Source: a virus
Lineage: Duplodnaviria; Caudoviricetes
Length of the DNA: 64,000 nt
Strand: one strand, 5' to 3'
Virus record (IMG/VR): IMGVR_UViG_3300015608_002982
Location: 1 to 64,000 of that record
In this document: in pieces, positions 1,490 to 62,182 of the stretch
Layout of the letters: every line of letters starts with the position of its first letter
Numbering within the stretch: position 1 is the first letter of the stretch
Notes under the pieces: generated by a model
What the model saw: only the letters and a program-made list of their open reading frames with translations
Told to the model about the DNA's origin: nothing
Databases searched by the model: none
Made by a program: the position numbers and the translations under genes

Positions 1490-2209
1490 TTAGTCTCTAA
1501 AAGTATGAGCATCTATTGAATTGGCTATTTCTTCTTGATCTATTGTGAATCTCTTAGTATTCCTATTATATGTACCTACTACATATAAATCTTCGTCTAT
1601 AAATACACCGACCATAATATGTTCTTCGTCTTCGGTTGTATCCATATATCTATCAAAGTCAATATTATCCTCTCTATAGATTTGTCTTAATCTTTTTAGA
1701 CCTTCTAAGTATTCTTTATCTTGAAAATTGGCATAATCCGTATAAGATTTTTTCAATTCTTCTGTATTTATTTCTTCGCCTAAAAATGATATAGAAAATG
1801 TGTGAATAACTCTTTCATGACCTGTTGTTTTATCTAATAAATATTCATTACTTTCAAGTTTTAATCCTTCTGATTCAACTCTATCAATCATTTCATCTAA
1901 TGATATTTTAATAGTATTTAAATTATCAAGAATTTTATTGAAATCATTTTTACCCGGAACTAAACTGTATTGAATTTGACAAGTGTAAAGCATTTTATAT
2001 CTTTCATTATCATAAACCTCTGTATTAACAGGGTGACCTTTTGAATCAACTAAATATCTGTAGTTATTAACTCTAGCAAATGTTTTTACATCAAATAAAC
2101 TATCATTAAATATATCACTTGGAATAGCCTTAGAAGTTAAGAAATCAGCATATTCTTGAGATGTTCCAAACGACTCATTGATAAAATCACCATATCTTTT
2201 TAACTTCAT
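1490..2209 (-). CDS. Hypothetical protein with capsid-targeting-like N-terminus
   Basis: MKLKRYGDFINES resembles the T4 internal-protein CTS (MKTYQEFIAE). Confidence 0.6.
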   Translation of the reverse strand: MKLKRYGDFINESFGTSQEYADFLTSKAIPSDIFNDSLFDVKTFARVNNYRYLVDSKGHPVNTEVYDNERYKMLYTCQIQYSLVPGKNDFNKILDNLNTIKISLDEMIDRVESEGLKLESNEYLLDKTTGHERVIHTFSISFLGEEINTEELKKSYTDYANFQDKEYLEGLKRLRQIYREDNIDFDRYMDTTEDEEHIMVGVFIDEDLYVVGTYNRNTKRFTIDQEEIANSIDAHTFRD

Positions 2210-3039
2210 TTGAATGATTGATTTTTTATTATCATTTTAACATGAGTAGAATGTGTTAATTCAACATTAAAGTCTCTTTTAACCTCTTGTCTTAGATATG
2301 GTAGTACAAAATCATCTTCATACGTTATTGAGTAGTCACTTGGTATTTTAGATTTAAGAGTTTCTAATGTTATAGGTAAGTAATTCTCATTCACTTCTCT
2401 ATCCCAATTGTCTGTGTATTTGTATTTTAATAAGAAATGTATAAAATTTCTATAGTCTGCATTTATACTACCCCAAACTTCTTCAAATGAAAGTAAATAT
2501 CTCTTATCTGCCTTTTGTCTCACCTTTCTAGCATCATCTTTATAGTTTGTAATCTCATTTCTTGTTAATTCTACCGATGGCATCATATCACGAATTGTGA
2601 TGTGTTTGAAGTTTCCAGCAAATACTTGTTGGTTCCAAAATTTACTAACAGTTTTACTATTAGAATATGAATACACTTCATGTATAACAGAGCTTAAATT
2701 TAATAAAGGATGCTTATAACCTGATATTTCTTTTATTACTTCATTCCAATTGTCAGTTAAAATAGCATTTTTTGGCAACTTACTACTTGCTTTATCTAAC
2801 ATAGTTTGGTCTAAGTCATATCCTATTATTTTAACATTTGGTCTCATTCTTGAAATACTCTGTAAAAAAGTACCATCTGCACAGCCAAAATCAACAATAA
2901 CATCAAATTTAATCTCATCTAAAAAGAATAACTTATCCGACATTGTTGTGTTCATGTCTATGATATATTGATCGTAGTTTGAAATTGGTTTTTCACCAAC
3001 TAACTCTTCTAAAAATAATTGCCAAGATAAAATTCTCAT
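2206..3039 (-). CDS. Class I SAM-dependent methyltransferase with CTS-like N-terminus
   Basis: VIVDFGCADG motif I; SSVIHEVYSY; N-terminus MRILSWQLFLEE. Confidence 0.75.
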   Translation of the reverse strand: MRILSWQLFLEELVGEKPISNYDQYIIDMNTTMSDKLFFLDEIKFDVIVDFGCADGTFLQSISRMRPNVKIIGYDLDQTMLDKASSKLPKNAILTDNWNEVIKEISGYKHPLLNLSSVIHEVYSYSNSKTVSKFWNQQVFAGNFKHITIRDMMPSVELTRNEITNYKDDARKVRQKADKRYLLSFEEVWGSINADYRNFIHFLLKYKYTDNWDREVNENYLPITLETLKSKIPSDYSITYEDDFVLPYLRQEVKRDFNVELTHSTHVKMIIKNQSFK

Positions 3040-3055
3040 TATTGTATATATTAAA

Positions 3056-7458: not shown

Positions 7459-7461
7459 TAT

Positions 7462-11340: not shown

Positions 11341-11658
11341 ATGAAAATAAGAAGATTTAATGAAGATGAACAAGTAGATATCTCATCTGAGAGAGTTAAT
11401 GAAATAATTGAGGAGCTTAAAGAGTTTTCTGATATTATGAATGATAAGTCTAAGTATGTTGAGGCTTTGTTAAATGAGCTTAATAACTATAAAAGTGACT
11501 CTACAAAAGGTAACGACCAAATAGATGATTCTATTGCCGCACTTCAAGTAATTAAAAAGGACGCTGATGATTCTGCTGATAAAATTGATACTGTTGTTAA
11601 TAACCTATTAGACTACAACGAGAGTGGTAGAAAATATATGTACACTGAAAACAAGTAA
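11341..11658 (+). CDS. Coiled-coil protein with CTS-like N-terminus
   Basis: MKIRRFNEDE; heptad-rich acidic body. Confidence 0.6.
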   Translation: MKIRRFNEDEQVDISSERVNEIIEELKEFSDIMNDKSKYVEALLNELNNYKSDSTKGNDQIDDSIAALQVIKKDADDSADKIDTVVNNLLDYNESGRKYMYTENK

Positions 11659-12790: not shown

Positions 12791-13189
12791 TTATTTTACC
12801 GAGTTCAAAAACTCTTCGTAATTAAATTTAATTTTTTCTTTTTTGAACTGTGATATCATATCATTAGCAATCTCCATTCTATTTTCTTTATCTTTGACTT
12901 TTTTAATTATGTCGATTATTCCTGATACCATTTGATAGTCATTTCCATCAATTTCTTTTTTAATATTTGATTTAGATTCACCCATAAAAGAATCAGAAAT
13001 TCTATCTTCTGTCTCTTCAATTAGTTGAATTGTGTAGTCATAACCATCTTCAACAGATGCTAGTGTTGAGTCTGCTATATAACCAGCTTCACCTTCGTTT
13101 TCAGCTGGTATAATTAATTCTATTTTCGCAAATACTTTGTAGTATTTTTGATTTGAATTATCTTCTAATATTTTAGTGAATTTTTTCAT
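12791..13189 (-). CDS. Hypothetical protein with CTS-like N-terminus
   Basis: MKKFTKILED. Confidence 0.55.
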   Translation of the reverse strand: MKKFTKILEDNSNQKYYKVFAKIELIIPAENEGEAGYIADSTLASVEDGYDYTIQLIEETEDRISDSFMGESKSNIKKEIDGNDYQMVSGIIDIIKKVKDKENRMEIANDMISQFKKEKIKFNYEEFLNSVK

Positions 13190-14309
13190 ATTCTACGTCA
13201 CTTTTAATTTTATTTATCTTCTTTTTAAGATATCTACCGTTTTTATTAAACTCTTTACCCCAGTAGTCAATAAATTGCTTACAACTCATTTTTTCTAAAG
13301 TTGATATAGAGATTATTGGACTGGCTTTTTGTTCTTTTAACTCATTTTTATAAACATCTACCCACATTTCTTTTAATTTATCTGCTACATCTTCTTCAGT
13401 TTCACATCCTACTAAAAGAGCATTGCCCATATCTTTCCAATTGTAATGGCTTGATATTTGATTAATCAATGATGTATAAAACATATCTGCATCGAATTTT
13501 TCCATCTCATTTGCAGTTCTCCATATTTTAAATTGACTTAGGTCTTTATCTGGATATGTATTTATGAAATAGTGAATCTCTTGAATGTTTGCGTTCATCT
13601 CATGTGACTCACTCATATAAATATATCTAATGAATTCTGTAGTCCATTTATACCATATCGCTTTTGGAAACTTCCATTTATTATTTTCTGCATAAGTTAA
13701 AGAAGTATTAAATGATCTACCATATATTGGCTTTCTATATTCACCTCTTTTAGGAGCTCTCATTGTTCTTTTATAGTGTTCGTAACAGTGGTTTAGTTCA
13801 TGATATAATGTAGAAACAATACCATCTATTAATGATTTTTTATTTTCTTCATTTTTAATATCAAACATTCTCTTATTAATATCGATACCAACACTAAGTT
13901 GAATTATTAATCCATGATCAGTAACCTTTTTAACTGGTTTTATAATTTTAGAATAGTTTTTCCAATTTTTATTTCCAAATCCAGAAGCCCAGCCACCTAT
14001 AGCAACGTGGTTTTCATAATTATCCCCATACAATGAGTGAAACTTCAAAGGTGTCATCTTTTTGAACTCTAATACTAATTCAAATCCAACTACTGGAAAT
14101 TCTTTATAAAGTTCTTTGTCTTTGATATAAGGGGTTAGATATCTATATTTTACTTCAACTGTTTCATCTAATCTTGTTTCTCTTGATTTTAAGAATTCAG
14201 TAAAAGCATAGTAGGTTTTTCTTTGTAAAATATCAACATACAATAAGCTTGCTTCAGAAGCTCCATGTCTTTCATTGATACTAAAGTCTTTAAAATTTAA
14301 AATCCCCAT
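13173..14309 (-). CDS. CTS-bearing putative zinc metallopeptidase
   Basis: MGILNFKDFSINE; HExxH (YHELNH) with downstream SESHEMNA as candidate third ligand. Confidence 0.6.
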   Translation of the reverse strand: MGILNFKDFSINERHGASEASLLYVDILQRKTYYAFTEFLKSRETRLDETVEVKYRYLTPYIKDKELYKEFPVVGFELVLEFKKMTPLKFHSLYGDNYENHVAIGGWASGFGNKNWKNYSKIIKPVKKVTDHGLIIQLSVGIDINKRMFDIKNEENKKSLIDGIVSTLYHELNHCYEHYKRTMRAPKRGEYRKPIYGRSFNTSLTYAENNKWKFPKAIWYKWTTEFIRYIYMSESHEMNANIQEIHYFINTYPDKDLSQFKIWRTANEMEKFDADMFYTSLINQISSHYNWKDMGNALLVGCETEEDVADKLKEMWVDVYKNELKEQKASPIISISTLEKMSCKQFIDYWGKEFNKNGRYLKKKINKIKSDVEYEKIH

Positions 14310-14785: not shown

Positions 14786-14786
14786 A

Positions 14787-15322: not shown

Positions 15323-15523
15323 ATGGGATTAATTAAAAAGTTTGATAGTTTTGTTTCCGAGAAATTAGTTGTAGAACTTAAACCAGTAAAGACCATTTCT
15401 AAGCCGGTTGAGGCAGAAATATCAGAAGAGGCCGCAGCACAGCAAGTAATTGATAGATTATCAAGAATTTATAAAGAATTACCAGCTGATAAAAAATCAG
15501 ATGTGGATAAATATTTCCAATAA
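15323..15523 (+). CDS. Small protein with CTS-like N-terminus
   Basis: MGLIKKFDSFVSE. Confidence 0.55.
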   Translation: MGLIKKFDSFVSEKLVVELKPVKTISKPVEAEISEEAAAQQVIDRLSRIYKELPADKKSDVDKYFQ

Positions 15524-15528: not shown

Positions 15529-17244
15529 ATGAAAAGATTTTCAGATTTTATAAAAGAAGAAGTAGATTTAAGAGGAAGTAAAGGTATTCCTTCTGACTTT
15601 ATGTCAAAGGCGGACCAAGAAGCAAGAGCCTCTTTAGGTATTAGACCTGATGATGAAAGCCAGATGAGAACATTATGGCCCGAATTTGAAAGAAATATGA
15701 GAGAGTCTAACCAGATTCTAACTCAAGGTTTATCACAGGCTCAGGTTAAAGAAAGAGTTGAAAAACTTGAAAAATTAGCAGAAAAAGTTGTTAGAGATAG
15801 ATTTGATGAAATATTAGACTCTGCTATTAAACCAATTGAATTGAAAATTAAATTAGTTCCGATGGGTCAGGTTTCTCAAGAAATTAGAGATATTACTAAT
15901 GTGCCTCAACAAGCTAAACAACCAACTGAAGAACAACAAGAAGAACAAGACGAAAAAGACGAAGAAAATAGAAATAAGGAACAAGAGGAACAAACACCGG
16001 AAGAAAGACTTGAAGGTGAAGAGACTCCTGGTACTGATTTAGTTGCAGCAGTCGATAAGAAGAAAATTCTTAATATGATTACTCAAGCCGCTGGTAAATC
16101 CACAAAGGATATTATCAGAGCATCTGATATTGTTGATGAAGGCTTACAAGAAATATTTGGTGATTCCTGGAGAAGAATTTTAGATTGTTGGATTAGAATG
16201 TCTGATATCGCAGATAAGATGGATTGGGTTATTCCTATTGGTAGAAAATCTCAAATGATGAAAGATATGCCTGGTGGAATGGCTGGTGCTTGTCAAGTTA
16301 AGTGGGAAAGTCATTCAGGTAATTTTTATGACATGAAACTTCTTTTAGAAAAAGAAGCAACTAAAATTGTTATTCATGCTACTGGTGTTGATTTTCCAAT
16401 GTTAATACATGAAACAATTAAAGGTATTTATCTTTTCTTACAATCAGGTGCTATTAAAAAAGATAAAGAAACTGCTAAGATAGTTAAAGCGGCTACATCT
16501 TCTTTTTCAGATGAGGCTCAAGACTTTAGATATGGTCCTCCAGCCTTTCAAATGTTGTTAAATTTTGTAAATATGTTTCCTGAATCAAATCAATATAAAA
16601 GATTGGATACAAGAGTATTTACCATTTTAGCACTTGATAAAGAAAGAGCAATGGTTGAAGCAAAATCATCAAAGCCAGAGTTTAAGGAATACTTAGATAA
16701 AAAAGCTGATGTTGCTAGAACAGATGAACAATTTTTAGAGATAATGAAAAGTCTTTTCTCTGTATTTGATTTACAAGGTACTAATTATGTCGTAAATGAA
16801 GAAAAGTTCAATACATCTTTAGCTAAGAGAGAAATCAAAAAGATAATTGATTATATAGTCGATGATATAGAATCTTACAAGTCAGAAATTGAAGAGTGGG
16901 AAAAAGAACAAAGAGAAAGAGAAGAAGAATCTAAATATCGTCAAGAGTATAATGATGAAGAGGGAACTATAGAACCTGGTCAAGAAGAAGAATCAGATAT
17001 AGATGCTTTAATTAAAAAGACATTATATGGTGGTCAAGAAGAAGAATCTCCAGAATCAACTGAGGTTGATTATACACAGTTAAGTCAGAGAGAACTACAG
17101 GATCTTATTGATGATGCCTTAGATGCAGGTGATTATAAAAAAGTTCAAATGCTTGCTCAGTATATGAAAGAAGGTAAAGAAGTATATCTAAAAGAAATTG
17201 AGAGAATAAATGAATCTCATAATTTTCATACAAGAAGAAAATAA
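15529..17244 (+). CDS. Large acidic CTS-bearing protein with C-terminal IDEAL/UVR-like helix pair
   Basis: MKRFSDFIKEE; FPMLIHETIKG; LQDLIDDALDAGDYKKVQML. Confidence 0.65.
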   Translation: MKRFSDFIKEEVDLRGSKGIPSDFMSKADQEARASLGIRPDDESQMRTLWPEFERNMRESNQILTQGLSQAQVKERVEKLEKLAEKVVRDRFDEILDSAIKPIELKIKLVPMGQVSQEIRDITNVPQQAKQPTEEQQEEQDEKDEENRNKEQEEQTPEERLEGEETPGTDLVAAVDKKKILNMITQAAGKSTKDIIRASDIVDEGLQEIFGDSWRRILDCWIRMSDIADKMDWVIPIGRKSQMMKDMPGGMAGACQVKWESHSGNFYDMKLLLEKEATKIVIHATGVDFPMLIHETIKGIYLFLQSGAIKKDKETAKIVKAATSSFSDEAQDFRYGPPAFQMLLNFVNMFPESNQYKRLDTRVFTILALDKERAMVEAKSSKPEFKEYLDKKADVARTDEQFLEIMKSLFSVFDLQGTNYVVNEEKFNTSLAKREIKKIIDYIVDDIESYKSEIEEWEKEQREREEESKYRQEYNDEEGTIEPGQEEESDIDALIKKTLYGGQEEESPESTEVDYTQLSQRELQDLIDDALDAGDYKKVQMLAQYMKEGKEVYLKEIERINESHNFHTRRK

Positions 17245-17253: not shown

Positions 17254-19206
17254 ATGAAATTATTTAAGTATAACCAATTTTTAGGTGAAAAACCACTAAA
17301 TGAGAATCTTGATAAGGCAAAAAAGTTTATGAAAGAAACATATTTGCTGAAAACTGTTGCTACTGATCTTGGATTTATTGAAGGTGAATTAAAAGCACAG
17401 TTAGACCATAAAGAAAAGAGAAGTCTTACTTTAGGTGATTTTACTCCTGAGCAACAAGAAGAAATTAAACAAAAGTTAAGAACTACTAAATTAACAGACC
17501 AAGAAGTAAGAACTATTGAAAGAGATCCTGAATTCTTAAAGATTAGAGAGTTATTAGGTAATCAATATATTGGTTGGACTTATCCATTTACTTATTTCTA
17601 TTTTGTTGAAATGGTTTCATTAGATGAATTATTTAATAGTGAGGATTCTATATTTAATAAGTTAATTGAGTATAAAGGTTTGCTAGATAAACTACCAAAA
17701 AAGTTTGACCAAAACTTTATTGATGTTAATATTCCTAATAATGCTGAGGTTTTAATAGATGGCTTAGATTCATTAGAGGATTATAGAAAGATTAAGAAAG
17801 TATTTGATAAATTAACACCTGTTTTGAAAAAAGACTATACTGATTCACCTGAAGTTATTAAACAACAATTTGCTGAAGTTTGTAGAGGATTTGATCAATT
17901 AGGTGGTGATGATGAAGCCAAGAAAGAAAAACTTTGGAAATCATTTTTTGGTGAGGTGAGAACTATTGAAGCTGACCAAGTTATTCACGGTAGAGCATAT
18001 AAGAAAGGTGACAAGAGATACTTTGGTCCTCTTAACAGATATACAAATATTAGAGAATTCATCAAAGCTGGTCAAAACTATTTGAAATCATCTGAGAATG
18101 AAACAGTATTGGCTTTCTATGATAAGATTAATAACTGTAATGATAAATATGGTGCTTTAGGTGCTGATACAGTATTTGAAGAAAATGGTATCTTAATTAT
18201 TGAAGTTAAATCATTCCAAGCTAATCAATTCTTAAATGGACATACAAGACACTGTATTAAAGATTATTCTTCTCAGTGGGAAAACTATGTGGCTTCACAC
18301 GATAACAAACAGTATTATATCTATAACTTTAATATTCCTCAATATGATAACCTTTCAACAATTGGTATTACAATTGAGCCTGGTCAAAGAATTAGAGCTT
18401 GTCACGCTAAAGATGATGCTGGTATCTCAAGTAGAATTAAAGATATTCTAAAAGGCTGGGAAAGAGAATATGGTATTAAAGATGACCTTTTTGCTGAACT
18501 TAAACCAATGACCGGTGAAGAAGTTGAAAAGAGAAGAAGAGCTAAAGTTGCTGAAAGAGAGATTGTTAAGAAAGGTCTTACAATTGAACAAATCACAAGA
18601 TATGTAAAAGAAGATGGTGCTAACATCAATAAGGATAATTGTGTTGCTCTTTTACACGCAGTTGAGGAAAATGATTTAGATAAAGCAAAAGTAATTCTTG
18701 ATTTAGGTGGTTCGCCAAACTTGAGAAGTAAAGCAGATGCTATTATTAATAAAGCAACTACACTTGATATGATTAAGTTATTAGTTGCTAATGGTTCTGA
18801 ATTAACAGGTGAAGTATTTAATAATATTTGTGATGATTTAGATGCTGTTGAGTATTGCTTAAAGCAAGGATTAGATCCAAACTTTGATAACTTCCTTCCT
18901 ATTAGAAGATGTGTTAAAGGCTCTTGGAAAACTAAAGATGATATTGGTGAAGGTTACTTTGATGTGATGAAGCTACTTGTTAAATATGGTGCTAAATTAC
19001 AATCTGAGGGTAATAGATATATGCAACTTAAATGGGCAGCAGAATATGGTCGTTTAGATTTTATTGATTACATGATTGAAAAAGGTGTTAAAACTGGTTT
19101 CAAAGCGGCTCTTTCTTGGCTAAATCACAGTAGAAAAATTCCTGATGCTAAAAAGAAAGAAGTTGTTGCTTACTTAGAAGAGAAGATTAAACAATACGGA
19201 GAATAA
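17254..19206 (+). CDS. CTS-bearing protein with C-terminal ankyrin repeats
   Basis: MKLFKYNQFLGE; ALLHAVEENDLDKAKVILDLGG, LKWAAEYGRLDFIDYMIEKG. Confidence 0.75.
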   Translation: MKLFKYNQFLGEKPLNENLDKAKKFMKETYLLKTVATDLGFIEGELKAQLDHKEKRSLTLGDFTPEQQEEIKQKLRTTKLTDQEVRTIERDPEFLKIRELLGNQYIGWTYPFTYFYFVEMVSLDELFNSEDSIFNKLIEYKGLLDKLPKKFDQNFIDVNIPNNAEVLIDGLDSLEDYRKIKKVFDKLTPVLKKDYTDSPEVIKQQFAEVCRGFDQLGGDDEAKKEKLWKSFFGEVRTIEADQVIHGRAYKKGDKRYFGPLNRYTNIREFIKAGQNYLKSSENETVLAFYDKINNCNDKYGALGADTVFEENGILIIEVKSFQANQFLNGHTRHCIKDYSSQWENYVASHDNKQYYIYNFNIPQYDNLSTIGITIEPGQRIRACHAKDDAGISSRIKDILKGWEREYGIKDDLFAELKPMTGEEVEKRRRAKVAEREIVKKGLTIEQITRYVKEDGANINKDNCVALLHAVEENDLDKAKVILDLGGSPNLRSKADAIINKATTLDMIKLLVANGSELTGEVFNNICDDLDAVEYCLKQGLDPNFDNFLPIRRCVKGSWKTKDDIGEGYFDVMKLLVKYGAKLQSEGNRYMQLKWAAEYGRLDFIDYMIEKGVKTGFKAALSWLNHSRKIPDAKKKEVVAYLEEKIKQYGE

Positions 19207-25485: not shown

Positions 25486-26109
25486 ATGATTATGAGAAAC
25501 ATCAAAAAATACGAAGACTTCCTAAATGAAGAAGTCAATTTAAAGAAAGCTTTAACAACTGGTGCTTTAGCTGCTGGTATGATGTTGAGTAATCCAGTTT
25601 ATTCACAGACAAAAACAAATACAACAAAAACAGAGGAAACTTCTAAAAAAGACAACCTATATTACATATCAACATCTTCTAAATCAGGTCTTAATGGACC
25701 TTACAATAAAGATCCTGTTAAAAATATTAAATTCGCAGTTACACCTTATGTTGTTGATACATTAGGTTTGAGTTTGGTAGAGTTAGAAAAAATTTATTTA
25801 AAAGCTCTTGAGACTGCCAAGATAAAACTATTATTATCTAGTAGTTTAAAAGATAAAAAAACATTTGATTATAAATCAAATGAAAATGGTATTATTGGTG
25901 GTATAGTTTCAATTGAAGAACTTCGTAGACAAGGTCCTGAATTTAGTAGTGATAAAGATTTATACATATCTTTTAGTTTTACTTGTGATGGTAATGAATA
26001 TGTTGTTGGTATAGAATGTTATCTCTCTGCTGCAAAAAGTGGAAATATCCCCTATAATGCTATAGGTGTTACAAAGGTATGTTGTGGTCCTTGGGAGCCA
26101 TTTGAATAA
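25486..26109 (+). CDS. CTS-bearing protein with internal signal-peptide-like segment
   Basis: MRNIKKYEDFLNEE then VNLKKALTTGALAAGMMLSNPVYS-Q. Confidence 0.65.
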   Translation: MIMRNIKKYEDFLNEEVNLKKALTTGALAAGMMLSNPVYSQTKTNTTKTEETSKKDNLYYISTSSKSGLNGPYNKDPVKNIKFAVTPYVVDTLGLSLVELEKIYLKALETAKIKLLLSSSLKDKKTFDYKSNENGIIGGIVSIEELRRQGPEFSSDKDLYISFSFTCDGNEYVVGIECYLSAAKSGNIPYNAIGVTKVCCGPWEPFE

Positions 26110-26511
26110 CTACCACCTCTTTTCTGTATCTTTTGGTGTGTGTCCTATTTTACTTACTACTAACTCATAATAAGCATCATTTACTCCAAAATCAGATGAA
26201 TAGACATAAAGATTAAACTCTTTTAGGTGTTCATTTACATCACGAATTAACTCAAATATTTTTGGCTCAACGTAATGTAAGACCGGTAAGTCACTTGGAA
26301 AATCTATATCTTTATGATTAAAAACCACAATAAAACATTTGTCATCTTTTTCTACTAATGATGATTGTAGAGAATCTTCAACATAATATTCTAGCGAAGG
26401 AAACTCATCAGTTATGTGATAAAGTATTTCGGATAAGTCTTGGTGTGTAATACCAAAATCATTTTTTAATGAAAATCCTTCAGTTATAAATTGTGAGTAT
26501 TTCTTTATCAT
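26110..26511 (-). CDS. Hypothetical protein with CTS-like N-terminus
   Basis: MIKKYSQFITE. Confidence 0.6.
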   Translation of the reverse strand: MIKKYSQFITEGFSLKNDFGITHQDLSEILYHITDEFPSLEYYVEDSLQSSLVEKDDKCFIVVFNHKDIDFPSDLPVLHYVEPKIFELIRDVNEHLKEFNLYVYSSDFGVNDAYYELVVSKIGHTPKDTEKRW

Positions 26512-29485: not shown

Positions 29486-30556
29486 ATGACTAAATATGAA
29501 TTTTTAGAAAAGGCGAGAGAAAAACATGGATATAAGTATCAATATCCTAATCTAAAAGATAAGATATTATCAACTGATGATATAGATATAGTTTATAATG
29601 GCGTTTTGTATAAACAAAAGGTTGTTAAACATATCCTACTAGGTAGATGTCCTGAAAAAAACACACCTGCTAAAACAACTGAGCAGTTTATTAAGGAAGC
29701 AAAGCAAGTTTGGGGTGATAAATATGACTACTCGTTGACCGAGTATAAAGGTGCATTAAAAAAATTAAAAATTATATATGATGGTATTATATTTGAACAG
29801 ACTGCCTCAAGTCACCTTAAATATGCACCAGAGTTAAGAATGAATAAAGAATATTTTATAAAGCTTGCTAAGTATAAATGGGGTGATAGGTATGATTACT
29901 CACTAGTTGAATATACGGATTGTAAATCAAAGGTAAAAATAGTTCTTAAAGAGACGAATGAATTATTTGAACAGACACCGTTTAATCATTTACAATATTC
30001 ACCAGAAAATATAAATAAAAGAAAATCAACAGAACAATTTATTAATGAATCAAACGCAGTTCATGATTTTAGGTATAACTATGATAAATCTGACTATATT
30101 TCTAATCAAACAAAAGTTACAATAACTTGCCCGGTTCATGGTGACTTTACACAGAGACCTTTATCACATATACAAGGGAATGGATGTCCAAATTGTAATG
30201 AATCTAAAGGAGAAAAAGAAATAGCTAAGTTTTTAGATAAATATAATATTTTCTACGAGAGACAAAAAAAATTTCATGATTGTCGTAATATATTTGAACT
30301 GCCTTTTGACTTTTACATACCAAGTGCTAGAACCTGTATAGAGTTTGATGGAAAACAACACTTTCAACCTATGAAGTTTTTTGGAGGATTAAAAGCATAT
30401 GAATCTCTTAAAATAAATGATAAAATAAAAGAGAATTATTGTGAGGATAATTACATAAATCTTATAAGGATAAGATACGATCAGTTTGATGAAATTTACC
30501 AGATATTGTGGAATAATTTAAAGAACTTGATAGTTCTTAACAATAAAATCAACTAA
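29486..30556 (+). CDS. Homing endonuclease: DUF723-like repeats + PD-(D/E)XK nuclease
   Basis: Repeated WGDKYDYSLxEY, CPVHG, GCPNC, SKGEKEI, LPFDFY..IEFDGKQH. Confidence 0.8.
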   Translation: MTKYEFLEKAREKHGYKYQYPNLKDKILSTDDIDIVYNGVLYKQKVVKHILLGRCPEKNTPAKTTEQFIKEAKQVWGDKYDYSLTEYKGALKKLKIIYDGIIFEQTASSHLKYAPELRMNKEYFIKLAKYKWGDRYDYSLVEYTDCKSKVKIVLKETNELFEQTPFNHLQYSPENINKRKSTEQFINESNAVHDFRYNYDKSDYISNQTKVTITCPVHGDFTQRPLSHIQGNGCPNCNESKGEKEIAKFLDKYNIFYERQKKFHDCRNIFELPFDFYIPSARTCIEFDGKQHFQPMKFFGGLKAYESLKINDKIKENYCEDNYINLIRIRYDQFDEIYQILWNNLKNLIVLNNKIN

Positions 30557-31141
30557 TTCATCGCAGAATTTTTGTATATCTGCTTTCATATCATCTGTGA
30601 TTTCAAATGATTCTTTCATGTATTGAGATAAAAACTTAACCTTATCAAAGTCTCTATCATCAAGAGCTTGGTCAATAAGTGCGTTTATTTCAGACTTAGA
30701 CATATCTTCATAGTCTTTTTCTTTAGCTTGCTTCCATTCTTCACCTTCGGATTCTGCTGACTTTTTAATAGCTTCTAAAAATTCTACAAAGAAATCAAGT
30801 GACTTATCAAGTCCTTCCTTAAATGATTTTTCAATAAATATTGATTTTGAGTTTTTTAATGATTTATCAAATTTTTCAAGAACTAAGTCTTTAAATTCTT
30901 CAGATAAATCAGGATTAGAATTTACAGATTGAACAAACATATTAAACAAAAGCTCAATTAAGCTATCAGCTCCTTCACTTAGGTTTTCAACATCACCAGT
31001 CATTCTTATATTTTTCTCCATAGAAAAAATAGGTTCTAACATAGCATAAAGTGATAATTTAAGATTTTCAAGCTTTCTCTTGAAATCATCATCATCTTTA
31101 ATACCTTCTAAAAATAGTTTATATGTTTTAATTCTTTTCAT
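30518..31141 (-). CDS. CTS-bearing protein with IDEAL/UVR-like motif
   Basis: MKRIKTYKLFLEG; INALIDQALDDRDFDKVKFL. Confidence 0.6.
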   Translation of the reverse strand: MKRIKTYKLFLEGIKDDDDFKRKLENLKLSLYAMLEPIFSMEKNIRMTGDVENLSEGADSLIELLFNMFVQSVNSNPDLSEEFKDLVLEKFDKSLKNSKSIFIEKSFKEGLDKSLDFFVEFLEAIKKSAESEGEEWKQAKEKDYEDMSKSEINALIDQALDDRDFDKVKFLSQYMKESFEITDDMKADIQKFCDELVDFIVKNYQVL

Positions 31142-33036: not shown

Positions 33037-33524
33037 TATTTTGGTAGTTTTATTTTTATTGTAATATTTCTTTTTCTATTAGGTGAATCTGTTTTACTTA
33101 TTGTTTTGCCAATCATTGTCATAAATTCTGACCACTCTTTATCACTGGAACTACCTTCATCAAACCCCCAACCAATAAAAAATGACATCTTACAATTATA
33201 AATTTCTAATTTAGATTTACAATCTAATAATAGCTCATTTACTTCATTGTCCGATATTGAATTAGGTGAGTAAGTCATTTCAAATGATATTGCTGATTTA
33301 TTACCTGAGAAATTAAAGTCTCCAATTTTATGATTTGATACTTCTGATTTTCCCCAAATAACATCATCTGATGCAAAAATACCACCTAGTATATTACCTT
33401 TCTCAATTCTTGACTCGTCAATAATATCATATAAACATTCAATAATATCGTTATATGTTACTTCAACTTTTTCCTTTTTTTTGAAAAGGTCAAAAAATCC
33501 TTCGTATGTTTTTAAGTTTTTCAT
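33036..33524 (-). CDS. CTS-bearing protein
   Basis: MKNLKTYEGFFDLFK; 24-nt identity with the 5' end of the neighbour. Confidence 0.6.
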   Translation of the reverse strand: MKNLKTYEGFFDLFKKKEKVEVTYNDIIECLYDIIDESRIEKGNILGGIFASDDVIWGKSEVSNHKIGDFNFSGNKSAISFEMTYSPNSISDNEVNELLLDCKSKLEIYNCKMSFFIGWGFDEGSSSDKEWSEFMTMIGKTISKTDSPNRKRNITIKIKLPK

Positions 33525-34333
33525 TTGAATTTATTAGGAAAGATGTGTCTCCATTCATGTCCTTGAGGAACATCAGATGTTTTTACACCAAATATCTTTT
33601 TTTCTGGACAAGTATCTTTACCGTCCATTAAGAAGTTGTTATTACAAGCCCAAACTTCAACATTTCTTTGTAATAATTGACCAACTGAAAAAGGAAATCT
33701 AATACCAGTTTCATTTTCAATATTAGTAATTCTACCATCCGGTGATTTAGTTACAACTATTTCCAATCTTGGGTTTCTTTTATTAGTGAATTTAACTTCT
33801 CTTTCGTGTAATCCTTCATCAATTAAGTCCGCTGATGGATTAATTTCAGTTTGTATTCTTTCAATTCTTTTTCTTTCTCTATCCTCATTATAGATTTTAT
33901 CTACTAATTGAAATAATTTTTTACGATAAGATTCTTTGGATCTAATTCTCTCAGCTAATCCTGAGTTATTACCAATAAAAAATTTCCAAGGATTTTTACA
34001 CTTTTCATAGCCAACCATTACTCCGTTTTGATTAACTAAAGTGTGTCTATCATTTGATATTACAATGTCAACATCATCAAATCTAACTAAATATATTTTA
34101 CTGAAATATTCAGTTTCTTCGTTATTTCTATGATCTGGTGTTGGATCGCCTACAAATTTACTCATCCAAGATGGTAGTTGGGCAGCGGTATTCATTATCT
34201 CATCTATCTGATAAGGATTTCTGTCTTTAACTTTTTCAAGACGGTGTATAATATCTAGTGTGATTTTATCATCACCGGTATCTTTCTTAAAATAATCTAA
34301 GAAACCTTCGTTATATTTCTTTAAGTGTTTCAT
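33521..34333 (-). CDS. CTS-bearing protein
   Basis: MKHLKKYNEGFLDYFK; RIERIQTEINPSADLI. Confidence 0.6.
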   Translation of the reverse strand: MKHLKKYNEGFLDYFKKDTGDDKITLDIIHRLEKVKDRNPYQIDEIMNTAAQLPSWMSKFVGDPTPDHRNNEETEYFSKIYLVRFDDVDIVISNDRHTLVNQNGVMVGYEKCKNPWKFFIGNNSGLAERIRSKESYRKKLFQLVDKIYNEDRERKRIERIQTEINPSADLIDEGLHEREVKFTNKRNPRLEIVVTKSPDGRITNIENETGIRFPFSVGQLLQRNVEVWACNNNFLMDGKDTCPEKKIFGVKTSDVPQGHEWRHIFPNKFK

Positions 34334-34341: not shown

Positions 34342-34806
34342 TTATTTATTTTCAATTATCATGAAATCAAACTCGCCATTTTTATGAGTTGATAATAAAA
34401 AGAAATAACCCATAGACTCAATTCTATATTGAACATCTTTAGTTATTTCAAAAAATTTATATAAATTATTATTTGGTACACCAAATACTCTTTGATTATC
34501 ACCTCTTTGTATATCGGTTGCAAAGTAACCATCTTTAAAAAATTCACTAAAAGAAACTTGAATTCCTTTATGAAGATTTGGTTGGCTTTCCCAATAGTTA
34601 GCCGGAATGTTGACAAATCCTTTAGTCAATTCATTACCAACTGGCATGAAATCTTGACCATCAAAAATCTTAAATGCTTTATATTTCAATGTATATTTAG
34701 CGTCACATTCTACATACTCAGATAAAATGTCGTGGAGTATTGATTCGTCAGAGAAAATATCTTCTTCGTTTGATTCATTGAATTTTTTTAAGTGTTTCAT
34801 TAACAC
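34342..34806 (-). CDS. CTS-bearing protein
   Basis: MKHLKKFNESNEE. Confidence 0.6.
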   Translation of the reverse strand: MLMKHLKKFNESNEEDIFSDESILHDILSEYVECDAKYTLKYKAFKIFDGQDFMPVGNELTKGFVNIPANYWESQPNLHKGIQVSFSEFFKDGYFATDIQRGDNQRVFGVPNNNLYKFFEITKDVQYRIESMGYFFLLSTHKNGEFDFMIIENK

Positions 34807-39786: not shown

Positions 39787-40182
39787 ATGATAAAGATGCC
39801 AGATAAGATTTATGTTGATAAATCACCAATACACGGCTGGGGTGTTTTTGCCAAGGAAAAAATACTAAAAGACGAAATAATTGAAGAGTGTCCTATTCTT
39901 ACCTTACCAATTAAAAAAGATGAGAGTACTTCTCTTCTAATTGACTATAGGTTTAATTTTCCAACTGGTACACAAGATTGGACTGAACAAGTTATTCCTT
40001 TTGGTTATGGTTGTCTTTATAATCACTCAAATCAACCAAATGCTTATTGGTGTTCTATTGGTGTTAAGAGAACATTTATTTTTGTCGCTTTAAGAGATAT
40101 AGAACCTGGTGAGGAAATATTTACCTATTACGGTGATGATAACTATTGGAATGATGGTAGAACACATACTGAAGTAAAATGA
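39787..40182 (+). CDS. SET-domain protein lysine methyltransferase
   Basis: HGWGVFA, YNHSNQPN, ALRDIEPGEEIFTYYG. Confidence 0.92.
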   Translation: MIKMPDKIYVDKSPIHGWGVFAKEKILKDEIIEECPILTLPIKKDESTSLLIDYRFNFPTGTQDWTEQVIPFGYGCLYNHSNQPNAYWCSIGVKRTFIFVALRDIEPGEEIFTYYGDDNYWNDGRTHTEVK

Positions 40183-40550
40183 CAAAAGAAGATTTTATAG
40201 AATTTATAAAAGAGTTAGGTTTTACTCAAACTTGGAGGTCAGAGGGTAATTCCTTTTCTATGGCAACTGATGTAGTTGGACTACCAAACTCAAACTATGC
40301 AGCTTTTGCTGACCAGTTAAATATAACTATAAGTGATGATCATGATTTGTTTCAATTATCACTTTCACAAATGAGTTCACACATGATGGGTGGTAAAAAC
40401 TTTGGTAAATTTAGTTTGAAGACATTTGGTGAAAAAAACGACTTTCAAATAGAGATATTTATGAGTTTTATTAAAGGCTCATTTAAAAAGGCACCTGATA
40501 GTATTATTCAGTTTATGAGAGATAGAAAAATCTCCGATATTTTAAAATAA
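40179..40550 (+). CDS. Hypothetical protein
   Basis: Ends MRDRKISDILK. Confidence 0.55.
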   Translation: MTKEDFIEFIKELGFTQTWRSEGNSFSMATDVVGLPNSNYAAFADQLNITISDDHDLFQLSLSQMSSHMMGGKNFGKFSLKTFGEKNDFQIEIFMSFIKGSFKKAPDSIIQFMRDRKISDILK

Positions 40551-45123: not shown

Positions 45124-45693
45124 GTGGATAAGTTCTCAAAATTAAAACCGAAATCAGAGTTTGAACAAGATAAAGAAAAAGTACTTTACCAAGACAATCA
45201 TTTTCAAATAGTTCAGTTTGAGGACTGGTCAATTCTAAAAGAAAGAGACGCTGTTGTTTGTATTCCTTATTTGATTGAAACTAATCAAGTAGTTTTAAGA
45301 TATGAATATATTCCTACGTTTAAGTATGCTGATGGTCAAGAATATCATCTAACTTTAGTTTGTGGTGGTATTGAACAGGGTGAAACCGTTGAGAAGGCTT
45401 TGAGAAGAGAGCTTGAAGAAGAAGCGGGTATTGTTTTAAGAGAAGACTTTCAATTTGAAGAAGTTTTAAAGCCACTTTTTATTAATAAAGCATCGGCTAA
45501 TAAATATTATCCTTATATCTTACCTCTTAATGAAAGAGACTATCACGAGGTAGTTGCTAAAGGTGACGGTTCTAAAGAAGAGCAAATGTCTAAATCTGTT
45601 AAGGTTGATGCTAAATATATTAGCTCGTTAAATGCTTCCGATTTGATAACAGACTATATGTTGTTAAAGTTGAAAGAGTATTTGAATGCTTAA
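45124..45693 (+). CDS. NUDIX hydrolase (GTG start)
   Basis: CGGIEQGETVEKALRRELEEEAG. Confidence 0.9.
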   Translation: MDKFSKLKPKSEFEQDKEKVLYQDNHFQIVQFEDWSILKERDAVVCIPYLIETNQVVLRYEYIPTFKYADGQEYHLTLVCGGIEQGETVEKALRRELEEEAGIVLREDFQFEEVLKPLFINKASANKYYPYILPLNERDYHEVVAKGDGSKEEQMSKSVKVDAKYISSLNASDLITDYMLLKLKEYLNA

Positions 45694-47027
45694 TTTTTTA
45701 AGTATCTTTCTAAATCTCCTTTTATTTCTCTATTAAGTGCTTTTGAATCTACATCACCGTAGTCTGAGAAATTTGGATCCATTCTATAAGTGAAGTATTG
45801 TTCTCCACACCATTGTTTGAATATATCAACTAAGCTATTACCTTTTAATCTTTCAGCATCTTCATTATCTATCCAATCATTGTTGTAAGGAATAGTATAA
45901 AATGTATCAATATCTTGATACTCTTTTCTTGTTTGAGTACCGTCAGCATTTTTTTGAGTGTAGTATTTAGTAACCTCTCTCTTTTCCTTTGTGAATGTAA
46001 ATTCTTTTTCAACGATTTCATCAAATTCATCAAGAATTGATTGATAGTTTGCATCAACGTGAGCATTCATTTCCCAATCACCAATAGTTTGTTTAACCTC
46101 TTGACAGATTTCAGAATCTTTACACATTGATTTTAAAGTTTCATAGAATCTCTCTTTTAGTAAAAACTCAATAGCTTCTTCTTCAGACATACCGGCTATG
46201 TTATCATTCTCAATTTGCTCTAAGCCACCCATTTCTTTAATCATAGCTTTAACTAATAATTGAGCATTCTCTTTATCTAATGTATATTGAAACATTGATA
46301 CAGTATCTGGTTGATAGTCAGATCCGTAATAGTTATCATACATATTTTCTTCACCTTTTACTAAAATATCTTTATAACTGGAATCTCTTGATAACATAAT
46401 ATCAGACATATCTTCTATATCTAATTCGACATAAACTTTGTCTTCTTTTATAATAGCATCTGACCAATTGTAATATTCAACAAGATCTTTTTCTTTGAAT
46501 GTAACTGTTTCTTTACATTTAGCAAAAATAGCAATATAATCACCATTTGCTTCTAATAATTCAGGTTCTGATGAATTCCAATTATCTGTATAGAAAAAAC
46601 CACCTTTAATTTCTATTTCATCTACATCTCCAAGATTACCATCTTGGTCATGTATTGATATTTCTACATTAGCTTCTTCTTGTATAATTGAACAAGCAAA
46701 TTGAAATGTAGAAGTAACATCAGTGTCTTTAATCTTACGACCGTATGCTTTGTGAATAGATATCCAGTAGGCAGGTATAACCTCATCACCTGATTTAACC
46801 TTTTCCGTAAAAACATCTTTTTCGGTTTCTACCCATTCACCATTCTTATAAGCACCTTTTTTAACTTTTTCTGAAAAGCCGAATTCTACTGAAACATAAT
46901 ATCCAGCATCTGTTATCTCTAACATATATTCTTCAATATCTTGTTCAGTGAGTTTCCATAACTTACCTTCCTCAATATCTTCTTTGAGTGATTCTTTAAT
47001 AAAGTGGATATACCTTTTAAGTTTCAT
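45690..47027 (-). CDS. Acidic CTS-bearing protein
   Basis: MKLKRYIHFIKES. Confidence 0.6.
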   Translation of the reverse strand: MKLKRYIHFIKESLKEDIEEGKLWKLTEQDIEEYMLEITDAGYYVSVEFGFSEKVKKGAYKNGEWVETEKDVFTEKVKSGDEVIPAYWISIHKAYGRKIKDTDVTSTFQFACSIIQEEANVEISIHDQDGNLGDVDEIEIKGGFFYTDNWNSSEPELLEANGDYIAIFAKCKETVTFKEKDLVEYYNWSDAIIKEDKVYVELDIEDMSDIMLSRDSSYKDILVKGEENMYDNYYGSDYQPDTVSMFQYTLDKENAQLLVKAMIKEMGGLEQIENDNIAGMSEEEAIEFLLKERFYETLKSMCKDSEICQEVKQTIGDWEMNAHVDANYQSILDEFDEIVEKEFTFTKEKREVTKYYTQKNADGTQTRKEYQDIDTFYTIPYNNDWIDNEDAERLKGNSLVDIFKQWCGEQYFTYRMDPNFSDYGDVDSKALNREIKGDLERYLKN

Positions 47028-61400: not shown

Positions 61401-61788
61401 AATAGAGGTTATTGGAATAGACGCGGTTAATAACACATTTATACTTAATGGTATATTCAAATTCAATATAGGTGATAAAATATACATCATAGATAATGAA
61501 CTAAATAATTCTAACTCGGTTTATGGTAGTAACTTATCACCAGGTGAGTATGTTGTTCTTTATCAAAAAGAAGACTCCCTAAACAAAAGAACTATACTAT
61601 ATGTAGATACTAAATTATCTACACTTGGTTCATCTGTAACTCCTGCGGTTGATACTGGTTTAAGAGTTGTTTCTAGATTTAGAAATCTAAACTGGAAGTC
61701 TGGTATATGGACAAATGGTATCTATGATTCTGGTCTTTGGGAAGGTGGTATTTGGTATAATGGTGTATTTAGTGGTACTTGGACATAA
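55486..61788 (+). CDS. Very large virion structural protein (2100 aa)
   Basis: IDGVNLIEGHRVLVKDQ..ENGIY baseplate/fibre-type motif, beta-propeller-like GGLNW region, duplicated YTFTF domains, C-terminal W-G repeats. Confidence 0.7.
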   Translation: MWIYNSDYKKWFAKDDSISKNDFDYLKQELKSTRLYSRVLSGATYLPVNDLNNLYDILVDYQQRDWYVSADPTNGSLYSATSIPPQHASPIDKNSSNNYYTKYLSEYGLTLKNLFTPYRLIKDSSKNYYDVDVATTETLDLTNIPKSIDGVNLIEGHRVLVKDQVSTTVLLATADPTTYFTGNYIITQDLGATIEYQYYNEENGIYKFTNGSLVREKDLDDYSKCVRYSVLVKLGLSNANKQYHLSRLLDGYYPSTSLTQPIEFKEKHNWILRNRVDYNNLFEINYYDVLKHGTQSYNFEGMTYSIPERTIAIGEFGVILNTQEGKSNIIKNKYKVNLRGITQTSKYYWICGDENTLLKVRKHDFFIDRIIVENIPTTLPNIIKSNLSSVSFFDDLNGAVVGELNTILYTKNGGLNWNRIEVSDFTGYNYNKVLYSTNSSFFVAGNTGVLIEFVNTLAGWVAYKRRVSKIEDSVDEYLLVENINDLYKTTLTSWSISYNYYTQSIPTNKELLFLVTNNNNIIAYDINNSFSQVGTDFIYFDFGKNYGDVRNITQKAGTNKFYFTGTDPISGNDGIFSFDISTFNLLGTGSSYSNTTVANTTAVYEYSSYLNKIFDYNGNQMLACGNNSILGISTYPTLSFSTLDSTFNNKLKSKMLFVDYDIASKLNFFTDQGEYRLPTSLTFSTSLTASGSKLEFLPIQHGITSTNNGTYSETNWITYMTDSMKTFEYYSNAPLDESTKVLISTTFSYTSQITSITYSNVNITASASQISYLAPMITYATASRYDGQFLPAITAPPSSSYNIYLYDYLMVYKVPTSYLVSKGDVLLFKSPMVDTHLTVNKIVDIGSWRYIYLYTEFNQNIITDLTKTSGVITVTNLNKYSNMGQLKYRFNNHPISDGYKIEYVDTYGNVTSATTSVFQITPRFNYETAYYNLQYRGLVSAASQNINYNNTYYFNGGATATVATSLNYFGGGHTQNNYPAWSGQLLNMINLPIPGEQVIVKLNNIAQIFTFTAGPSSGLNVNIDTDPFNGIPNTLNNLLNAITTNPTLAPFLYIPLCQVGSLPPSLNWLELWTNPIFGSLPNSNPAWQIVTNPAYPASITWQFAGPSIQFTGGITDPIPTTSATVSATMSSLPLNNDTCLVYVGSTPYTFTFKNSPILSTDVQITGSINSTLIDLKNKILALTGLNAKVSSATVVGNQIQLSAFSTFGSTPNTNWYIRFNLTTSLGSFSYVNATMSIVPSNGDTCVVTVNSTPYTFTFVSPGPAVGSYQVQVGGTINTTLTNLRTKINSSPVLSFLSGSSVNGNQIGLTATPIGPTPNNNWNINFSLNTGSYFTSSIYDAKYTDSFLKFGYSPTYNLMDYLTGINDPNDVNPKFYATKEYLAMPIYNGLPLGSLSTSTVYIDYNGMTYSGGSYSLPVNKILFGSDFKLEWESIFLNTFVDVKIHGISQTYTTEKMLVTDKYYDSINDTYIVEFHKRFNLPLGINILQSGCTLDIISRRHLYQISEDLQELNNIQRTKGKVNKVHPDSSRVNYSYESYENELNYKIPTDSYAKILLSDSDTIQQLSAVIYIDYKNELAMNITRLVKEYNVPIVNTIDYSGKLYISCAQNHDLITGDGVVLDFIGGTGSSQELNPQYSGYHVITKINNTDFVTDINYGVAPTVGLDSGYVRYTKQDPFLNYQPVDLIDLGIDGKGKIAIELSVDNVKLSEGIYSLVDVDFEKYRFRLIDGLNIETVNLQYSWLLEAELSDALIGFNGQLIWYKGTWVYGRWFGGVWQSGVWMAGDWYGGVWNSNIESIWYSGRWFDGTWNGGVWNNGRWYGGTWNNGMWHRGTWNDGTWNEGSFEGGIWVLGTWNKGVFSCKNEPAYWLDGKWYGGDFENGMWYNGYWEQKNKLARFGTKSFNSRTANWQAGIWVSGSFYSYINTNDQGILDVSDVHKYSIWKTGQWLSGEWYGGIAYNMDFKTGTWYGGILEEIEVIGIDAVNNTFILNGIFKFNIGDKIYIIDNELNNSNSVYGSNLSPGEYVVLYQKEDSLNKRTILYVDTKLSTLGSSVTPAVDTGLRVVSRFRNLNWKSGIWTNGIYDSGLWEGGIWYNGVFSGTWT
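60760..61785 (+). repeat. Five-residue W-x-x-G-x coding repeats
   Basis: e.g. RWFDGTWNGGVWNNGRWYGGTWNNGMWHRGTWNDG. Confidence 0.85.
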
Positions 61789-61816
61789 ATTTAAAATTTA
61801 ATTTAATATATACATT

Positions 61817-62182
61817 ATGATTAAGAAATATCTTCAATTTATAAAAGAAGCTGATGAGCCTGTAAAAGATAATAATAAATATACAGAGCTTAAAGAAGAA
61901 ATCAAATCAATGATTGAAAAAACTATCGAGAAGAGTGGTGGTGAGTATAAATCATTTGTAGATAAGTTTATTAAGTCACCTGATGATGTTAAGATAGAGG
62001 GTCTTATAAATGATTCAGATATATATGACTTCTATCTTAAATTTAGAAATGATATAGATGAATTGCTTAATGATATTAAGTACTTTGATGAAGTTCCAAG
62101 CGAGTCTAATACTTTTGGACTATATGACTATATCATAAATGGCACAGAGAAAGCAATTATAGAGGCTGTTAAACTTTTATAA
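61817..62182 (+). CDS. CTS-bearing protein
   Basis: MIKKYLQFIKEA after AATATATA (61805). Confidence 0.6.
   Translation: MIKKYLQFIKEADEPVKDNNKYTELKEEIKSMIEKTIEKSGGEYKSFVDKFIKSPDDVKIEGLINDSDIYDFYLKFRNDIDELLNDIKYFDEVPSESNTFGLYDYIINGTEKAIIEAVKLL

Follow-up and report, generated by a model that had tools for sequence, protein, structure and literature searches.

A probable T4-like capsid-targeting N-terminus shared by unrelated proteins of a Mahaphage-type megaphage

In phage T4, the first 10 residues, which hold the capsid targeting sequence (CTS), are enough for a protein to be packaged; by mutagenesis, residues 4 and 7 are the main determinants of targeting, and residues 8 and 10 those of processing (PMC9026906). 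The CTSs of the internal proteins IpI, IpII, and IpIII, as well as the propeptide of Alt, are removed by the prohead protease gp21 (Mullaney and Black 1996, reviewed in PMC9026906 and PMC3012670). In the phiKZ-like giant phages (phiKZ, 201phi2-1, and SPN3US), many head-internal proteins are likewise processed after a Glu residue by a gp21-related protease, the N-termini of paralogues are conserved, and some ejection proteins are known to contain transmembrane helices; by contrast, the propeptides are mostly longer than 100 residues, the processing sites follow A/S/G-x-E, and there is no common short tag (PMC5694885). Here, we describe a window of 64,000 nucleotides (nt), positions 1–64,000 of the 89,285-bp IMG/VR virus contig IMGVR_UViG_3300015608_002982 (G000, 29% G+C), in which genes of very different content open with a similar short peptide, which we designate the tag. 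The tag is real, strictly N-terminal, carried by unrelated bodies, and selected at the amino-acid level. It is probably a T4-type capsid-targeting propeptide that has been placed on an enlarged set of cargo proteins.

The initial annotation listed 21 tagged genes in the window. All 21 exist as open reading frames (ORFs), and each has a basic start and then an aromatic residue at position 4–7. The numbers by which the genes had been listed are their left ends, that is to say, the stop ends of the 13 minus-strand genes, and the minus-strand tags therefore lie at the right end (the gene 1490–2209 starts at 2209; Table 1). The strict motif [KR][KRT][YF]xxF[ILF]xE has 9 matches in the contig, 7 of which are in the window; all of them start at residues 2–7, and no internal match was found across the 28,943 residues of the contig. 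In a chance model of 5000 shuffles of every ORF's own residues 2–18, the 82 window ORFs gave a mean of 0.0046 N-terminal matches (maximum 1), compared with the 7 observed. The strict matches place the tag at the extreme N-terminus of the precursor, as for the T4-type CTS. For 20 of the 21 starts, an in-frame stop is located 1–17 codons upstream, and for the start at 25492 the distance is 45 codons; the likely true starts are 25492 (not 25486), 34800 (not 34806), and 40957 as listed (not the GTG frame from 40939).

A scoring matrix was made from 12 N-terminal matches in the contig, 10 of them inside the window, and members scoring at least 10 bits were classified as strong. The matrix sorts the 21 listed genes into 11 strong members, 1 intermediate member, and 9 weak members. 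Approximately 6 of the 9 weak members are made credible by the conserved N-termini of their orthologues, and 3 or 4 stay doubtful. In addition, the contig has a possible extra member absent from that list (40179) and 3 further tagged genes just past the window end (68942, 69911, and 76122). The aromatic and Phe residues that correspond to the targeting residues are complete in the 11 strong window members and partial in the weak ones. The Glu of the processing site is missing in 31340, 32137, and 33036, for which a later site would be needed, as in T4 IpI.

The tagged genes are clustered along the window, with 5 adjacent strong pairs versus 1.4 expected (p 0.004) and runs of tagged genes at 11341–19206 and 30518–34806. 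The earlier statement that the bodies are unrelated was borne out: a BLASTP comparison among 23 bodies, from which the first 18 residues had been removed, revealed just 2 similar pairs, namely the paralogues 32137 and 33521 (E 1e-12) and the proteins 30518 and 15529, which share a 48-residue stretch. A Sec-type signal peptide has a hydrophobic core of 7–15 residues behind a basic n-region; the tag does not qualify, as it has only 3 hydrophobic positions and a Glu at its end, and no member has a transmembrane-like window within its first 20 residues.

The contig represents part of a Mahaphage-type megaphage genome. Its UvsX-like recombinase ranks LR745206.1 (634 kb, 76% identical) and LR756502.1 (642 kb, 72%) as the nearest relatives, followed by LR756504.1, LR756501.1 (735 kb), and the Lak phages. 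Genomes of 634–735 kb form the Mahaphage clade, the predicted hosts of which are Bacteroidetes (PMC7162821); the complete relatives considered here span 385–735 kb. In addition, a 143-kb IMG/VR contig (G002) is syntenic, with approximately 80% DNA identity; its positions 106–143 kb correspond to 1–48 kb of the window.

When the same matrix was applied to LR745206.1 (965 ORFs), 24 matches were found within the first 9 positions and 11 were internal, which amounts to approximately 44 times the internal rate; 2 or 3 of the 11 "internal" matches are mis-called starts. LR756504 gave 10 N-terminal matches and Lak-A1 (26% GC) about one. Base composition was rejected as the cause of the tag because Lak-A1, which is equally A+T-rich, is essentially without tags. 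Most orthologues with bodies only 28%–65% identical retain the tag, and one distant orthologue (that of 40957 in LR756504) lacks it. In the conserved columns, synonymous codons vary, for the most part as genome-wide usage would predict, and Ile and Leu replace each other through unrelated codons; therefore, selection acts on the peptide.

In an AlphaFold2 model of the 45690 protein (mean predicted local distance difference test [pLDDT] score of 75), residues 1–21 form a detached, low-confidence helix (pLDDT 35–38), and the body lies mostly at pLDDT 62–92 (10-residue block means; 3 blocks are lower). Together with the unrelated bodies and the untagged orthologue, this model suggests that the tag is a portable add-on. 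The modeled body had no Foldseek match against the PDB, and the protein atlas likewise gave none. Compared with the other proteins of the same genome, the tagged proteins are more acidic, with a median isoelectric point (pI) of 4.5–4.8 versus 5.4–6.7 (p ~1e-3; G000, LR745206.1, and LR756504.1). A faster turnover of tagged genes was rejected, as 28% of tagged and 32% of untagged genes are without a homologue in the complete relatives searched. Also rejected was the idea that the bodies behind the tags serve as [LI]xE-rich, scaffold-like substrates; this motif is neither enriched nor depleted in them.

Among 47 tags from 3 megaphage genomes, the aromatic residue is found in 45, Phe in all 47, I/L/V/M in 42, and Glu in 35, and the column before Phe favors Q, D, or E, as in T4-type tags. 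These conserved columns coincide with the T4 determinants of targeting (Tyr4 and Phe7) and processing (Ile8 and Glu10). In the T4 genome (AF158101), IpII and IpIII begin with M-K-T-Y-Q-E-F-I-A-E, exactly as the initial annotation had it, and IpI has a related M-K-T-F-x-x-F start. Comparison with the internal proteins of T4 and with Alt revealed the following likenesses: (i) a peptide of approximately 10 residues stands at the N-terminus of otherwise unrelated proteins; (ii) an aromatic residue and Phe are 3 positions apart and are followed by Ile/Leu-x-Glu; (iii) the genes are partly clustered; and (iv) the megaphage lineage, as represented by the relatives, has a T4-type portal, a Gp23-type capsid protein, and an S77-like protease. 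The system differs from the known T4 mechanism in (i) many more carriers (approximately 11–21 per 64 kb here and approximately 25 in the complete 634-kb relative, compared with 3 internal proteins in T4); (ii) an acidic cargo, as predicted from the sequence, of 66–650 residues, whereas the T4 internal proteins are small and basic; (iii) a variable leader of 3–6 residues before the aromatic residue, with Lys-Lys in place of the Lys-Thr of T4; and (iv) a protease-fused scaffold of tag-like repeats (described below). The residue after the Glu is mostly Ser, Glu, or Asn here and Ala in T4. The phiKZ-like giants are further set apart by unrelated head-gene sequences and by their hosts, which are Proteobacteria.

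A scan of IMG/VR for M-K-T-Y-x-x-F-I-x-E revealed more than 130 ORF starts among the matches listed, with diverse bodies and 30%–45% G+C. The M-I-K-K-Y form gave 74 matches, approximately 70 of which are true ORF starts, on contigs of 22%–35% G+C (one of 39%) and up to 483 kb; most of these starts stand behind a TATATATA-type motif. In view of the spread of both forms, the window tag would be a megaphage dialect of a peptide that is widespread among T4-type phages. Literature searches for this tag in huge phages found no description of it.

Pfam S77 and Gp23 searches of the 89-kb contig did not find the head module and returned 2 weak Gp23 fragments only; therefore, the head machinery of the source phage is deduced from its relatives. 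T4-type head genes are present in LR745206, LR756502, LR756504, LR756501, and 5 IMG/VR contigs (G001–G005, including G002). In LR745206, a 707-residue ORF with a weak S77 match is located between a Portal_T4 gene (E 4e-58) and a Gp23-type capsid gene (E 7e-26), and 2 tag-like genes directly follow the capsid gene. The S77-like ORF also exists in LR756502, LR756504, LR756501, Lak-A1, and G001–G005, which makes 10 of the 10 genomes or contigs searched for it. Lak-A1 (57.6 bits) and G004 (36.3 bits) exceed the cut-off of the Pfam family PF03420 (S77), and the other 8 score 19.6–24.7 bits. A profile built from 5 megaphage proteases matched only gp21 among the T4 ORFs searched (39.7 bits), and the His and Ser motifs G-E-x-x-H-P and S-S-R align between the megaphage proteases and T4 gp21. 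In a PDB profile search, the T4 gp21 chain 5jbl_A was a weak match, second of 3 and just behind an unrelated protein (E 0.03), and a phmmer search of PDB sequences with the LR745206 protease ORF gave no match. The AlphaFold2 model of this ORF has a mean pLDDT of 47, which is too poor for a fold search, and the S77 fold is therefore not confirmed. A conserved [LI]-N-E-S after the protease domain and an I-[NH]-E near residue 45 of the capsid proteins are candidate sites that would fit a T4-like [LI]-x-Glu specificity.

In all 9 tag-bearing genomes or contigs read, the C-terminal part of the protease ORF contains 10–14 repeats in tandem, each 14 residues long and built around Y-x-x-Y-[LIV]-x-E (fuller core, Y-S-E-Y-[LI]-A-E-N-L-D-K-N-I); after the array come a poly-acidic stretch and a helical C-terminal domain. 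The repeat core has the spacing of the tag, and the repeat region is acidic (pI 4.3–4.5). The [LI]xE density of this ORF ranks first or second in 2 of 3 proteomes (4.2–4.5 per 100 residues versus 1.4 ± 0.8). The pattern aromatic-x-x-aromatic-[LIVM]-x-E occurs 95 times in LR745206, with 26 matches at N-termini, 11 in the protease ORF, and 58 in the other 200,000 residues. The protease of Lak-A1 is present without tag-like repeats. The T4 prohead core similarly places an acidic helical scaffold rich in [LI]-x-Glu beside the protease, between the portal and capsid genes, and the N-terminus of T4 gp22 resembles the T4 CTS. By contrast, the gp22 scaffold and the gp21 protease are separate proteins in T4, whereas the relatives have one ORF of 655–810 residues that includes the 10–14 tag-like repeats.

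In the mechanism that we propose, the tag would be a short helix of approximately 10–13 residues with the aromatic residue, the invariant Phe, and Ile/Leu on one face. During head assembly, this helix would dock the protein onto the scaffolding core, which in this phage group would be the extended acidic repeats that share an ORF with the gp21-like S77 prohead protease. Once the shell is closed, the protease would cut after the Glu of F-[IL]-x-E and thereby remove the tag, and the mature protein would be kept in the head with the DNA, ready for ejection into a Bacteroidota host. Scaffold binding, cleavage, virion retention, and injection are steps that we infer, and the injected effectors of the initial annotation are a putative class in the same sense. 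A more specific proposal, which we consider possible rather than probable, is that the tag imitates one scaffold repeat: its helix would slot into a coiled coil of the 10–14 Tyr-x-x-Tyr-[LI]-x-Glu repeats, and the tethered protease would cleave it at the very site used to dismantle the scaffold. If such mimicry is true, any protein gaining one repeat-like helix would become head cargo, the resemblance of the T4 CTS to the gp22 N-terminus would be explained, and the packed proteome of uncultured T4-type phages would be predictable from sequence.

The tagged genes had been described as standing, in many cases, behind AATATATA. This is true, but the motif is not specific to them: 41 TAATATATA-type motifs, including those of untagged genes, are located 4–26 nt before starts in the 89-kb contig (for example, at 3045–3053 [−], 8984–8993 [+], 25478–25486 [+], and 61804–61812 [+]). 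Their spacing falls into 2 classes, 4–6 nt and 17–26 nt before the start. Nine tagged genes have TAATATATA 4–6 nt before the ATG, and 6 untagged genes share this spacing; the mRNAs would therefore be almost leaderless. Because TAATATATA-type motifs also precede tail-fibre, UvsX-like, and endonuclease-like genes, a motif specific to tagged genes was rejected. The LR745206 genes for the portal, protease, capsid, and sheath all stand behind TATATATA-type motifs, and the clade may thus use this motif as its late promoter. In 2 complete genomes, tagged genes have the TATATATA-type motif more often than other genes do (odds ratios 5.3 [p 1e-4] and 15.5 [p 6e-5]), and many tagged genes lie inside operons without the motif.

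The endonuclease-like genes behind TAATATATA are those at 29486–30556 (+), 23344–24144 (+), and 24822–25442 (−). The gene at 29486–30556 includes 2 internal K-[TS]-T-E-Q-F-I-[KN]-E copies, which mimic the tag in matrix scans without having its aromatic residue; the same holds for its LR745206 orthologue.

Other explanations of the shared N-terminus were weighed against capsid targeting. The tagged proteins could be auxiliary core or scaffold parts of a very large head, in which case the tag would be cut there, and the proteins would be degraded or expelled before or during DNA packaging rather than delivered. Their acidity, which resembles that of the T4 core proteins gp22, gp67, and gp68 and of the scaffold repeat region, the scarcity of enzymatic families among them, and the position of the 2 tag-like genes directly after the LR745206 capsid gene would all agree with this, and heads for genomes of more than 600 kb may need a complex core. 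We nevertheless regard it as unlikely because the tagged bodies, unlike the scaffold region, are not enriched in [LI]xE sites and resemble recruited functional domains (ankyrin, Dps-like, PQ-loop, and methyltransferase-like); moreover, approximately a quarter of them have no homologue in the complete relatives and one orthologue is untagged, which is unlike essential core parts. It is quite improbable that the N-terminal helix is a handle for a non-head process (chaperone binding, a degradation or timing signal, or localization to a replication compartment or membrane) and that its likeness to the T4 CTS is convergent. Such a handle would accommodate the variable offset from Met, the acidic cargo, the membrane protein and signal-like stretches among the members, and an upstream motif that is not confined to structural genes. 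However, 4 T4 functional columns match and a preference is shared at a fifth; the tags co-occur with a T4-type protease and with tag-like repeats, both tags and repeats being absent from Lak-A1; the tagged genes are enriched for the head-gene motif; and ejection proteins with transmembrane helices have precedents in giant phages (PMC5694885).

We consider it highly improbable that the similarity is kept at the DNA or RNA level, either as a translation-start context suited to near-leaderless mRNAs where the host has no Shine-Dalgarno sites or as a homology box for cassette recombination behind a shared promoter. The 9 tagged genes with TAATATATA only 4–6 nt before the ATG would suit such an origin, as would the A-rich second and third codons, which are common translation enhancers. 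The T-even internal-protein loci are, in addition, polymorphic (PMC3012670). Synonymous codons, however, largely follow the usage of each genome, and Ile and Leu swap through unrelated codons; the same 4–6-nt spacing is found in 6 untagged genes, many tagged genes lie in operons without the motif, and the turnover of tagged genes does not exceed that of untagged ones.

Several observations weigh against a T4-type capsid-targeting propeptide itself: (i) the whole clade is known from sequence alone; (ii) roughly a third of the 21 listed members are weak (9 when graded by the matrix alone), and several are without the Glu or the Phe; (iii) the aromatic residue stands at position 4 to 7, at a variable distance from Met, whereas it is fixed at position 4 in T4; (iv) the tagged proteins are acidic and the T4 internal proteins basic; (v) the tagged set includes a PQ-loop membrane protein and 2 proteins with signal-like stretches; (vi) in G000, the motif enrichment falls short of significance (p 0.1), and UvsX-like and endonuclease-like genes have the motif before them as well; (vii) the head module is off the contig and is deduced from relatives; and (viii) the S77 match is under the Pfam cut-off in most relatives, and the AlphaFold2 model of the protease is poor. 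The core of the initial proposal, a portable T4-like capsid-targeting N-terminus, is nonetheless supported as well as sequence analysis allows: the T4 columns match, the relatives have T4-type head genes, the orthologues conserve the tag, and a promoter-like motif is common to tagged genes and head genes.

If the tag works as in T4, it would mark, from sequence alone, the proteins inside the heads of the largest known phages. The approximately 25 head proteins thus predicted in the complete 634-kb relative, most of them without a function by name, would be the first to meet the host. Because no member of the clade has been cultured, a sequence-readable address is at present the sole route to a list of packed proteins. 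The tag-like scaffold repeats offer a testable answer to an old T4 question, namely what the CTS binds. Moreover, a tag that tolerates different leaders and many cargoes would be of interest for loading proteins into phage heads.

Table 1. Tagged ORFs of the window and the protease-scaffold ORF of relatives. Coordinates run from left end to right end; bits are matrix scores.
Location	Strand	Length (aa)	Tag	Body, orthologues, and upstream motif
1490..2209	−	239	Strong, 25.5 bits at residue 4; nt 2174–2209; strict-motif match	Without Pfam or PHROG match; LR745206 and LR756504 have no homologue
2206..3039	−	277	Weak, low matrix score; W-x-x-F-L-E-E, diverged but kept in orthologues	Methyltransferase-like body; N-terminus kept in LR745206 orthologue, still tag-like in LR756504; TAATATATA 5 nt upstream of gene start
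11341..11658	+	105	Weak, doubtful; basic-aromatic start only, score below 0	N-terminus of orthologue not tag-like past first residues
12190..12759	−	189	Intermediate, 6.2 bits; IpI-like variant K-K-F-x-x-F, then I-N-E at residues 14–16	Acidic linker after tag, then Dps-like body; DUF5856 53 bits (residues 94–185), phrog_858; orthologue retains start and I-N-E although an indel separates them
12791..13189	−	132	Weak, low score; K-K-F-x-x-I-L-E, diverged but kept in orthologues	N-terminus conserved in LR745206 orthologue
13173..14309	−	378	Weak; one-residue insertion, F-x-x-F-S-I-N-E, diverged but kept in orthologues	HExxH motif at residue 170; orthologue retains aromatic-x-x-F-S-I-N-E; TAATATATA 5 nt upstream of gene
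15323..15523	+	66	Strong, 15.8 bits	Opens three-gene tagged run; promoter-like motif 24 nt upstream
15529..17244	+	571	Strong, 25.1 bits; nt 15529–15558	Tag retained in orthologues of LR745206 (32% identical), LR756502 (36.5%, tblastn), and G002
17254..19206	+	650	Strong, 11.8 bits	Ankyrin-repeat body, Ank_2 29.6 bits (above cut-off); orthologue start near-identical, but Ile replaces Glu at cut-site column
25492..26109	+	205	Strong, 22.7 bits	Start is second ATG, 5 nt after TAATATATA; signal-peptide-like or transmembrane-like hydrophobic stretch behind tag (residues ~22–40)
26110..26511	−	133	Strong, 25.4 bits	Tag-like start in LR745206 orthologue, tag in IMG/VR loci
30518..31141	−	207	Strong, 14.5 bits; ends F-L-E-G	
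31144..31368	−	74	Strong, 26.3 bits	N-terminus near-identical in G002 and other IMG/VR contigs
31340..32125	−	261	Strong, 21.7 bits; without Glu at tenth position	Signal-like stretch behind tag, then C-terminal PQ-loop, 45 bits (above cut-off), with 3 transmembrane-like segments (windows at 164, 198, and 222)
32137..33036	−	299	Weak, score 0.4; K-T-Y-x-x-F-F-D, diverged but kept in orthologues	GTG start overlaps upstream stop
33036..33524	−	162	Weak; diverged but kept in orthologues	First 14 residues match those of 32137 at all but one
33521..34333	−	270	Weak, doubtful or diverged; K-K-Y-N-E-G-F-L-D, score below 0	C-terminal 100 residues match 106-aa LR745206 protein with similar start
34342..34800	−	152	Weak, doubtful, score 1.7; K-K-F-N-E only	Heads seven-gene minus-strand run; TAATATATA 6 nt upstream of gene start
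40179..40550	+	123	Possible extra member, 4.9 bits; D-F-x-x-F-I-K-E	G002 orthologue scores 16.1 bits
40957..41442	+	161	Weak, score 0.2; K-F-x-x-M-V-x-E, diverged but kept in orthologues	HAD-like by motif only, phrog_13623; LR745206 orthologue retains N-terminal extension, LR756504 orthologue begins 13 residues later without tag
45690..47027	−	445	Strong, 25.3 bits; nt 46992–47027	K, Y, F, I, and E invariant in 6 orthologues
61817..62182	+	121	Strong, 26.5 bits	First 14 residues identical in LR745206 orthologue; TAATATATA 4 nt upstream
G002 62725–64869; LR745206.1 198546–200669				Protease-scaffold ORF: S77-like protease fused to acidic repeats

Pfam and PHROGs searches left most tagged bodies without a named family. 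Among the body types that had been assigned from the window sequence, the ankyrin repeats of 17254 and the PQ-loop of 31340 pass the Pfam cut-offs, and the Dps-like assignment of 12190 agrees with its DUF5856 match. The methyltransferase assignment of 2206 finds partial agreement, as 8 methyltransferase Pfam families match the body, every one of them under the cut-off. The HExxH peptidase proposed for 13173 comes down to the bare motif, and the HAD assignment of 40957 received no Pfam support. The proteins 25492 and 31340 are alike behind the tag, where a basic pair is followed by a Gly/Ala/Leu-rich segment ending near a Gln.

Other large ORFs lie among the tagged genes. The 977-residue ORF at 52228–55161 (−) has P-loop ATPase matches of the PhoH-like, DnaB/DnaC-like helicase, and terminase type, and a LAGLIDADG homing-endonuclease match at residues 647–838; it may be an intein-bearing ATPase. 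A single ORF of 2100 residues occupies 55486–61788 (+); TAATATATA occurs inside it at 57888 and could give rise to a product of 1291 residues. Three consecutive genes of 505–540 residues are located at 5875–10620 (+); the first 2 are similar at their N-termini, and the third has matches among phage tail-fibre families (phrog_5668, E 4e-25).

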